A DNA stretch of 64,000 nt. Origin: Candidatus Hermodarchaeota archaeon. GTDB taxonomy: Archaea; Asgardarchaeota; Lokiarchaeia; Sigyniarchaeales; SOKP01. Both the position numbers and the translations under genes were made by a program. Below, in pieces: positions 61,682 to 63,433 of this stretch (positions are counted from its first letter, which is position 1; each line of letters begins with the position of its first letter). The notes under the pieces are model-generated. The model was given only the letters and a program-made list of their open reading frames with translations. It was not told the DNA's origin and searched no databases. The stretch is taken from contig JBHLLG010000007.1 in NCBI GenBank assembly GCA_048885925.1, positions 22,806-86,805 of the forward strand, written 5' to 3'.

Positions 61682-63433
61682 ATGAATGATTTAATAATAA
61701 AAAATGGCTTAGTATATGACCCATTAAATAATATCGATGGTGAAAAGAAAGAAATTCATATAAAAGATGGTATTATTACAGAGAAAGTAAATAGTGAAGC
61801 TAAAGTCATAGATGCTTCTGGAATGATCGTAATGCCGGGAGGAGTTGATATCCATTCTCATATAGCAGGAACTAAAGTTAATTTAGGACGTTCGTTTCGA
61901 CCAGATGATAAACTCGAGGAATTCAATGAAAAAAGGACTAAAATAACGCGTAGCGGAACCGGGTGGTCTGTACCCTCGACTTGGGTGACAGGTTATCGTT
62001 ATGCTAGATTAGGATATACCACTGTCGTAGAACCCGCAATGCCATTATTAAAAGCTCGTCATACTCATGAAGAGTTTTTAGTTACTCCTATTATCGATAA
62101 AGCAGCTTTTCCATTGTTCGGAAATAATTGGTTTGTTCTAGAATTCGTTAAAAACAAAGAATTTGATAAATTGGCTGCCTATATTGCATGGATCTTAAAA
62201 GTAACAAAAGGATATGCTGTTAAGGTTGTGAATCCAGGTGGTGTTGAGAATTGGGCATGGGGGAAAAATGTTGATAGCCTAGATTCTACAGTTTTTCATT
62301 TCGAAGTTACTCCAAGAGAAATCTTAGAAAATTTAGCAAAAGTTAGCGAATCTCTTGGATTGCCTCACACGATTCACGTTCATGCCAACAATCTTGGACA
62401 TCCTGGAAATAAAAAGCATACGATTGAAACATTTCAAGCGTTAGAAAAAATCAAGGCGAAAAAAGGACGAAATTCGAATATACATTTAACTCATTGCCAA
62501 TTCAACAGCTATAATGGCACAAATTGGGGTGATTTTGAATCTGGAGCTGCTGATATCGCTGAATATTTAAATTCACATAAACATGTCACCATAGATGCTG
62601 GTCAAGTAGTTTTTGGTAAAAGCGCAACCACCACCATGACTGCGGACGGACCTTGGGTTGAAAGCGAATATCTCGCTTAAACAAGAAAGTTCGCTCTGCA
62701 TCATATTGGTGGTACAAGTGAGTGGGGAGTTCGTCCTGGGATAAAATGGATAAACGGGCAAGTGGAAGGTGAATCTGGCTCAGGGATCGTCCCATATTTC
62801 TTTTCACCAAAAGTGGCTGTTAATGCTATACAATGGGCAATCGGCTTAGAGTTAATGCTGTTAACGAAGAATCCGTGGCAGGTCTTCATGACAACCGATC
62901 ATCCTAATGGAGGGCCCTTTACAAGTTATCCACAAATTGTCCGTTGGCTTATGGATAAGAAATCGAGGGATGATGTCCTTCTAAATCAATGTTCCAAGAA
63001 AGCATCGGAGAAATCACAGTTAAAGGATATCGATCGCGAGCTCACATTGAACGAGATTTGTATTGCTACAAGGGCAGGCACAGCAAAATGTTTAGGAATG
63101 ACAGATCGCGGTCATTTAGGCGTTGGGGCAATTGGAGATGTTGCGATTTATAATTTGGATCCAAACAACATGGATGGACACACAATAGAAAAAGCCTTTT
63201 CCTTAGCCACTTACACTATAAAAGACGGTCAAATTGTAGTCAAAGATGGCGAAATTACAGCAACACCGATGGGCACAACTTTATGTGCTGAAGGAAAAGT
63301 TAAAGATAGTACCATGGAAGCAATGCTTGAAGTAGTCAAAACACATTGGCGTGATCACTACAGCATTAATTTTAATAACTATGATATCGGTAACTATTAT
63401 ACTCCAAAACTGAAAATTATGAATGGTACATAA
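61682..63433 (+). CDS. fwdA: Formylmethanofuran dehydrogenase subunit A; join(61682..62657,62688..63433), 573 aa after removal of a 30-nt intron
   Basis: PGGVDIHSHIAG, KVVNPGG, HVHANNLG, TMTADGP, TTDHPNGGPF, TRAGTAK. The two ORF-track pieces are in the same frame and separated by a single TAA inside the insert. Confidence 0.9.
62658..62687 (+). other. Bulge-helix-bulge (archaeal tRNA-type) intron candidate in fwdA mRNA
   Basis: Exon helix CGGAC/GTTCG, central 4-bp helix CTTG/CAAG, 3-nt bulges GGT and AAA, intron hairpin AAGCGA/TCGCTT. Canonical cuts give TGG GAG TTC (W-E-F). Confidence 0.85.

Follow-up and report, generated by a model that had tools for sequence, protein, structure and literature searches.

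The question raised by this locus is how a fwdA gene whose reading frame is interrupted by a stop codon could still provide a complete FwdA protein. The gene lies on the forward strand of the window, i.e. the whole 64,000-nt stretch of DNA that was analysed (G000:C7:22806-86805), which comes from an archaeal host genome (G000) of 3.9 Mb in 181 contigs with 29% G+C, estimated to be 95% complete with 4.4% contamination. An original prediction, whose letters for 62635-62704 match the sequence, had proposed that the interruption is an intron rather than a sign of decay. Our analysis points to the same answer with a probability of about 85%: the interruption would be a 30-nt bulge-helix-bulge (BHB) intron. 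From sequence comparison, we infer that the fwdA RNA is cleaved and ligated, and these archaea very probably splice some of their mRNAs.

Positions 61682-63433 form a single frame on the forward strand that is broken by one TAA at 62678-62680. The open reading frame (ORF) 61682-62680 encodes 332 aa and closes at this stop; the frame then reopens and runs to 63433. When the stop is read through as X, the translation reaches 756.6 bits with TIGR03121, whose cut-off for a whole FwdA protein is 392.75, and also matches Amidohydro_3 (E = 1.3e-63). ORF translation and FwdA profile match confirm the initial claim that both halves of fwdA are in the same frame with a TAA between them. Solved FwdA chains in the PDB match at E = 1e-171 to 1e-189, and the best of them (9sw6_I, E = 9.7e-189) displays a 10-residue gap that exactly faces the insert. 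Excising 62658-62687 generates a GAG codon at the junction and a 573-aa product, according to the following organisation:

61682..62657, forward strand: fwdA exon 1, ending on G, the first base of the junction codon (from the ORF, the FwdA family match and the orthologue alignment)
62658..62687, forward strand: predicted 30-nt fwdA intron, corresponding to the orthologue gap, found at the same site and with the same length in G023, G103, L067, L068 and L069, and single copy in the genome
62678..62680, forward strand: in-frame TAA within the intron, closing the unspliced frame at 332 aa
62688..63433, forward strand: fwdA exon 2, opening with AG of the junction codon, with the stop codon at 63431-63433

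The evidence that carries this reading comes first from orthologues, which were searched in 40 related genomes and matched in 33 of them. Close fwdA orthologues (82-87% identity) match over 1719 nt versus 1749 nt here and are free of stops. Among the 18 aligned sequences, 16 are devoid of exactly 62658-62687 and read CCN TGG GAR TTY GCN, which is the predicted junction. The placement of this gap is unique because a shift of one base in either direction alters the conserved GAR codon, and the excision initially proposed is identical to it. Across the 153 genomes of the order, a pattern search detected an insert at this site in three (G000, G023 and G103), the one in G023 being 30 nt long at the same place with an in-frame TGA. 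An exon-anchored pattern accepting any insert of 25-45 nt retrieved three metagenome contigs (L067-L069) and one species-genome contig (L070), the latter being the same as G103 over the stretch compared. All inserts at the fwdA site are 30 nt long and each contains an in-frame stop, which is TGA in G023 and L069, and TAA in G103, L067 and L068. On a side note, the fwdA gene of G023 is split over two contigs (residues 1-274 on C48 and 250-583 on C35) that overlap by ~25 residues, which looks like an assembly break and not a biological split.

These data also bear on the most trivial explanation, an insert created by assembly or binning. The large number of contigs, the estimated contamination and the location of fwdA near a contig end speak for such an artefact, whose probability is nevertheless close to nil. 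The check for an assembly error that had been called for gave a clear result, since a contig obtained independently from a DNA run (714 nt, depth of 32.6) spans 62558-63271 and carries the insert with zero differences. Moreover, three metagenome contigs and the genomes of two other species contain the insert, with sequence differences among them.

The second line of evidence is the RNA fold around the insert. Every base pair of the BHB that had been drawn by hand is present, and the motif corresponds to the canonical hBHBh' architecture with a central helix and two 3-nt bulges, an exon-exon helix (h) and an intron-intron helix (h'):

62636..62651, forward strand: 5' strand of the outer exon-exon helix (AUGA, a bulged C, UGCGGA and CGGAC), forming 15 pairs with 62689-62704
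62652..62655, forward strand: 5' strand of the central 4-bp helix (CUUG, exonic), paired with 62682-62685
62656..62658, forward strand: 5' bulge of 3 nt (GGU), with a predicted cut after 62657 that coincides with the edge of the orthologue gap
62659..62681, forward strand: intron hairpin (h'), composed of a U62659-A62681 pair, a 2x2 internal loop, a 6-bp stem (62662-62667/62673-62678) and the loop AUAUC
62682..62685, forward strand: 3' strand of the central helix (CAAG, intronic), paired with 62652-62655
62686..62688, forward strand: 3' bulge of 3 nt (AAA), with a predicted cut after 62687
62689..62704, forward strand: 3' strand of the outer exon-exon helix (GUUCG, a bulged C, UCUGCA and UCAU), contributing 5+6+4 pairs

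The minimum free energy of the 81-nt stretch is -29.7 kcal/mol (z = -4.70), a stability that was reached by none of 200 shuffled sequences. A strict BHB occurs at one fixed position and length in ~5 of 100,000 placements (52,361 hits among ~1.1e9 placements in G000), and the motif of fwdA is significant because its register, i.e. both position and length, is independently fixed by the orthologue gap. Two other types of inserts were considered and discarded at this step. A group I or group II self-splicing intron is ruled out by the size of the insert, which is only 30 nt when a ribozyme core takes hundreds of nucleotides, and by the lack of any Rfam match at E up to 1 in 62300-63000. A MITE-like mobile element is ruled out since each of the three introns described in this work is single-copy in G000 (other matches to them do not exceed 19 nt) and no direct repeat flanks the fwdA insert.

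Further support for the fold as a functional structure comes from covariation among the six intron-bearing fwdA sequences (28 pairs, 168 cells). In this alignment, 91.1% of the cells pair and six of the 28 pairs, including one in the central helix, are changed on both sides, whereas none of 500 shuffles reaches either the pairing or the both-side-change value and sliding the 3' partner by 1-3 columns reduces pairing to 23.8-43.5%. The alignment of fwdA genes that had been suggested as a check yielded both an exact gap and compensatory changes. Paired cells amount to 96.7% in the outer helix, 100% in the central helix and 77.8% in the inner helix, and five of the nine aligned pairs of the inner hairpin are changed on both sides. 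In the outer helix, pairing is maintained at three pairs that vary on one side only (G-U/A-U, C-G/U-G and A-U/G-U) and is lost at two others in one or two sequences. The case of L069 is particularly telling: its intron sequence is unrelated but still adopts a canonical BHB, in which the bulge is immediately followed by a 5-bp stem. In its central helix, a synonymous exon substitution (CCU to CCA) is compensated by A to U in the intron, which converts a U-A into an A-U pair.

The exon half of the motif displays its own constraints. The 3' strand of the outer helix (62689-62704) is invariant in five of the six intron-bearing sequences at a gene-wide identity of third codon positions of 51%, and intron-bearing alleles show constraint at the synonymous sites of their flanking exons. 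All 15 outer pairs are formed in G000 and G023, compared with a mean of 11.6 of 15 in the 16 intron-less orthologues, which indicates that the protein motif itself already favours the helix and that intron-bearing alleles perfect it.

Presence of the intron is patchy in the FwdA tree, where the six intron-bearing rows are scattered. Six changes are needed to explain this distribution, at least two of which are forced by well-supported branches; L069 is located on a separate well-supported branch together with the intron-less G012 (99% SH-aLRT). The intron label is no more clustered than shuffled labels in this tree, which is poorly resolved within the genus. The scattered distribution fits with an old intron that underwent repeated precise losses, as proposed for the cbf5 intron of Crenarchaeota, or with repeated gains.

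A gene that is merely decaying would not be expected to maintain its two halves. The fwdA genes of G000 and G103 share 1338 of 1752 bases (24% differ), with pS, pN and omega values of 0.723, 0.105 and 0.045 for exon 1, and with a saturated pS of 0.742 and a pN of 0.099 for exon 2. This strong purifying selection on both exons implies that both halves are translated, in contradiction with decay. In addition, the intron is identical at 24 of 30 positions between the two genomes for only 51% at third codon positions, which implies that the intron itself is constrained. The insert could nonetheless have disabled fwdA and left a pseudogene in this lineage, as suggested by the presence of an in-frame stop, the rarity of the insert (three of 153 genomes) and the existence of a FwdA-like paralogue that adjoins fwdB. 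We consider this scenario as hardly credible, because both halves are open and conserved in three species despite saturated synonymous sites, the insert is itself conserved and covarying, and the same pattern is present in two other genes. The proposal that the insert is a real intron and not a decay product is thus supported by presence/absence polymorphism, covariation in six sequences, selection on the exons and the occurrence of genes for the splicing enzymes EndA and RtcB (see below).

The suggestion that other 'split' Asgard genes may hide similar introns also proved fruitful, since the recommended genome scan for BHBs led to two more candidates in the same genome, in cooS and in a ferredoxin gene, both with predicted cuts equal to the orthologue gap. 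The first of them is as follows:

G000:C4:38336-38367 (locus L072 2337-2368), forward strand: predicted 32-nt cooS intron with a canonical BHB and an in-frame TAG inside, in the gene for the catalytic subunit of anaerobic CO dehydrogenase

The two cooS exons cover consecutive positions of TIGR01702, with 1-546 for exon 1 (616.5 bits) and 547-621 of 621 for exon 2. Fourteen cooS orthologues (frames of 635-648 aa) align over the junction without exactly the 32 nt, and the cuts predicted from the BHB coincide exactly with this gap. A 32-nt insert is present at the cooS site in three of the 153 genomes: G000, G068, which belongs to another genus of the family, and G077. Across these three genomes, 98.1% of cells pair and four of the eight inner pairs are changed on both sides; pairing falls to 18.5-46.3% with a slid partner, and the observed values are attained by 14 of 500 shuffled alignments.

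The second one is located in a gene found directly downstream of an aldehyde:ferredoxin oxidoreductase (AOR) gene:

G000:C31:18957-18988 (locus L036 1458-1489), reverse strand: predicted 32-nt, frame-shifting intron in the gene for a HydN/CooF-like 4Fe-4S ferredoxin of 185 aa

Exon 1 of this gene ends with KCNGCAFC and exon 2 opens with RACDFG. Joining them at the cuts yields an Ile codon and reconstitutes the C-x2-C-x2-C-x3-C motif. Thirteen orthologues are devoid of exactly the 32 nt and have open frames of 184-188 aa, in agreement with the spliced length (103+1+81). Here, the minimum-energy fold is itself a 3-nt-bulge/helix/3-nt-bulge structure, with a central helix that is one pair longer than in the BHB register. 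An insert is present at the ferredoxin site in four of the 153 genomes. Here, G016 (L051, G016:C24) and G023 (L052, G023:C29) carry an unrelated 32-nt insert with a 12-bp outer helix; three of its four central pairs are formed, one base off the G000 register, and the product is an in-frame Cys-Val/Ile-Arg-Ala. A strict local scan of this G016/G023 insert detected no BHB, in-frame cuts being obtained only with three of four central pairs, and its register looks like a relaxed motif or intron sliding. G077 (L097, G077:C14) contains a further variant with an irregular inner helix. The neighbouring AOR gene had been suspected of being interrupted as well, since only the end of AFOR_N was matched, but this candidate was rejected: past the end of the locus, the N-terminus is found without a change of frame and the gene is intact.

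The availability of three genes helps in evaluating whether fwdA might be expressed without splicing, either as two polypeptides, by stop read-through with 10 extra residues, or by ribosomal bypassing. Such modes would be compatible with an insert length divisible by three, with a frame shared by both halves, and with the ATG that happens to open exon 2 of cooS. However, no start or separate frame begins close to the fwdA junction, the GTG at 62762 being the next start listed; the stop varies between TAA and TGA among the variants, and matching take-off and landing codons were not seen at the fwdA or cooS sites. In addition, the 32-nt introns of cooS and of the ferredoxin gene shift the frame, the ferredoxin insert cuts a Cys-cluster motif, and the covariation of the BHB would be left unexplained. 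Expression of unspliced fwdA therefore appears highly unlikely, and we favour a spliced fwdA mRNA.

Beyond these genes, genome-wide scans were performed for introns of 14-90 nt (12-200 nt in the structure-score scan) flanked on either side by 50 or more open codons; long introns, looser motifs and introns close to gene ends escape them. The BHB scan bridging open frames gave three top hits with GC-rich helices. A strict BHB combined with ORF bridging resulted in 244 real versus 194 decoy hits, mostly fusions of neighbouring genes. The structure score alone yielded 14 real versus 6 decoy hits at scores of at least 44, a relaxed motif with ORF bridging 7 versus 1 at scores of at least 36, and a filter on coding potential 358 versus 303 at scores of at least 24 and 4 versus 5 at scores of at least 34. 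Since real and decoy counts are similar past the three top hits, no more introns are claimed.

Several individual candidates from these scans were rejected. C94:5453-5492 on the forward strand has the highest BHB-scan score, but its upstream 'exon' is non-coding; the very strong hairpin at this place, whose 14 bp are part of a longer helix (97 nt, -37.1 kcal/mol), terminates 10 nt upstream of the ATG that opens a 244-codon ORF and may be a leader or terminator structure. The C3 candidate (DnaJ) is ordinary coding sequence with an alternative frame that is open by chance, and the flanks of the C98, C5, C52 and C1 candidates are AT-rich or non-coding.

The enzymes presumed to act on such introns are encoded in G000. 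EndA (the tRNA-splicing endonuclease) is specified by one gene of 198 aa (C22:7621-8214) that comprises both N- and C-terminal endonuclease domains (PF01974, 101.7 bits; PF02778, 31.9 bits), and RtcB (C12:26362-27669) is identified by PF01139 with 569.6 bits. In PMC5829648, Asgard archaea are described with an (alpha-beta)2 EndA whose L1 insert widens the substrate range, and a 2026 preprint counts two EndA paralogues in 44 of 60 Asgard genomes. ARAGORN with intron search called 31 tRNA genes in G000, 19 of which have introns, although false calls may be included and so small a total points to missed genes. Since 31 is too few at 95% completeness, non-canonical or multiple introns probably conceal many tRNA genes. 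The Asgard affiliation of the host, which had been put forward together with the intron, is supported by its marker content, namely four actin-family genes (PF00022, 440.9 bits for the best one) and an ESCRT-II domain (PF05871, 44.4 bits) that has no match in 14 control genomes.

Sequencing data were compared through the contigs of four runs (X1, X8, X19 and X20) among the 20 found, two of them being of RNA type with a 0.07 share of words. The RNA-library contigs of X20 (61854-62004 and 62025-62175) and X19 (62231-62466) all fall short of the intron, and run X8 has zero cover at 62685-62861. The fwdA sequence in the RNA library of X20 is near-identical to that of the window and may represent either transcript or carried-over DNA. 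Alternatively to splicing, the BHB could be a real EndA site which only cuts and inactivates the mRNA, or whose exons are seldom ligated. Substrates other than introns, e.g. the processing stems of rRNA, are also cut by EndA (PMC7714728), and the ligated product is absent from contigs that, for the RNA libraries, stop before the site. Such a dead-end cleavage is nevertheless very improbable: purifying selection on exon 2 is as strong as on exon 1, which implies that exon 2 is translated in the frame of exon 1, excision at the predicted cuts recovers the orthologous reading for each of the three genes, and a gene for RtcB is present.

Several observations weigh against a spliced BHB intron. Regarding structure, the minimum-energy fold of the free RNA retains the inner hairpin along with the outer helices, whereas its centre is paired in a different register, with -22.9 kcal/mol for the exact BHB drawing compared with -29.7 kcal/mol for the optimum. 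The weighted score of the fwdA BHB (34) is unexceptional, a score of at least 34 being obtained by 1339 real versus 1230 decoy placements, so that structure alone is weak evidence for the fwdA intron. The covariation signal relies on only six (fwdA) and three (cooS) related sequences, and the G000 scans show no excess of real over decoy hits once the three top hits are set aside. Neither the spliced joint nor any omitted letters were seen in the four runs, the RNA-library contigs being uninformative on splicing as they do not reach the site. Finally, a second (beta) EndA subunit was not found in G000 (PF01974 at E up to 10; an alpha-like protein at E up to 1), which leaves a single EndA gene, whereas mRNA splicing is linked in the literature to a hetero-oligomeric enzyme.

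Taken together, the data suggest the following model for the maturation of the fwdA mRNA. The exon sequences on either side of the insert would pair to form the outer helix, while four exonic bases would pair with the last-but-two four bases of the intron to form the central helix. The remaining part of the intron would adopt a hairpin, which leaves two 3-nt bulges on opposite strands. EndA would then cut after the second base of each bulge and RtcB would join the exons, thereby creating the GAG codon and an mRNA for the 573-aa FwdA, with release of the 30-nt intron, probably as a circle. By contrast, unspliced RNA would give a truncated product of 332 aa. All three insertion sites are located in highly conserved protein motifs (ADGPW/E for fwdA, CxxCxxC/IRAC for the ferredoxin gene and APEY/MEQKA for cooS, the slash marking the site), and conserved codons may offer a stable exon half for the BHB motif.

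Concerning the genetic context, the intron-bearing fwdA of the window, which is the equivalog, stands alone near the end of contig C7. On contig C11 (G000:C11:41256-44546), FwdB (344.9 bits) adjoins a FwdA-like paralogue of 30% identity, and FwdC (TIGR03122) had no match in this 95%-complete genome. With such a paralogue next to fwdB, a C1-pathway enzyme would depend on splicing only if the fwdA of the window encodes the working FwdA.

If confirmed, these introns have consequences beyond the locus. They would add three genes of central anaerobic metabolism, in the Asgard lineage closest to eukaryotes, to a very rare class. Gene callers will report such genes as truncated, split or pseudogenes, so that metabolic reconstructions of Asgard archaea can err, with an impact on the Wood-Ljungdahl pathway, CO dehydrogenase and ferredoxins. 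Besides, their presence or absence in close species offers a natural system to follow the gain and the precise loss of protein-spliced introns, and illustrates how codons are constrained when they build the exon half of a splicing motif.

Among known systems, the closest is the cbf5 intron. According to PMC2738675, cbf5 of Crenarchaeota, a pseudouridine synthase gene, was the first case of archaeal pre-mRNA splicing; it depends on EndA and a BHB-like structure, shows lineage-specific loss, and its intron disrupts the codon of a catalytic residue. As in the cbf5 pre-mRNA of Desulfurococcales and Sulfolobales, fwdA combines a short insert, a conserved part of the protein and flanks that form a BHB-like structure to be cut by EndA. 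The lineage-specific presence and precise loss of the cbf5 intron are matched by the patchy distribution found for fwdA. In contrast to cbf5, the hosts are fwdA, cooS and a 4Fe-4S ferredoxin gene, the lineage is Asgard, and three genes are concerned in one genome versus one. The fwdA motif is also a canonical hBHBh' when that of cbf5 is termed 'BHB-like', and cbf5 splicing was shown experimentally whereas that of fwdA is predicted from comparative data. Membership in the cbf5 intron family was thus rejected on the ground of different host genes: these introns would work alike but are not the same intron. Our full-text search, which had an incomplete coverage and did not extend to supplements, returned no report of BHB introns in Asgard protein-coding genes and, beyond cbf5, no other protein-coding BHB intron.

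The introns described here also resemble those of archaeal tRNA and rRNA genes, with which they share the same motif, the presumed enzymes EndA and RtcB, and a similar size range. In this respect, Asgard tRNA genes are reported as heavily interrupted by introns in PMC11291895 and bioRxiv 10.64898/2026.10.13.758758. The difference lies in the substrate: since this is an mRNA, codons have to supply the exonic half of the motif, and the constrained synonymous sites of the intron-bearing alleles are consistent with this requirement.

A more distant parallel, which the original prediction had drawn, is the splicing of HAC1/XBP1. This process is likewise non-spliceosomal: an endonuclease cuts a folded mRNA twice, a tRNA-type ligase (a tRNA ligase or RtcB) joins the ends and the removal of a short intron changes the protein (PMC13149111). 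Its endonuclease is IRE1, and its motif consists of twin stem-loops versus a BHB in the present case. Furthermore, HAC1/XBP1 splicing is regulated by stress while nothing in the fwdA case shows regulation, and a similar regulatory role of the Asgard introns would be speculation. A bolder scenario, which we regard as improbable, would be that the family carries a small, evolutionarily mobile set of 30-32-nt mRNA BHB introns in genes for oxygen-sensitive C1/redox metalloenzymes (FwdA, CooS and the AOR-linked ferredoxin). Splicing would then gate these enzymes post-transcriptionally, with truncated products from unspliced RNA and with EndA/RtcB activity setting the amount of enzyme, and splicing of the HAC1/XBP1 kind would already operate in archaeal relatives of eukaryotes. 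Altogether, the mechanism proposed for fwdA is of a known kind; what sets this case apart is the Asgard lineage, how many genes are concerned and of which nature, and a motif that is cleanly canonical.

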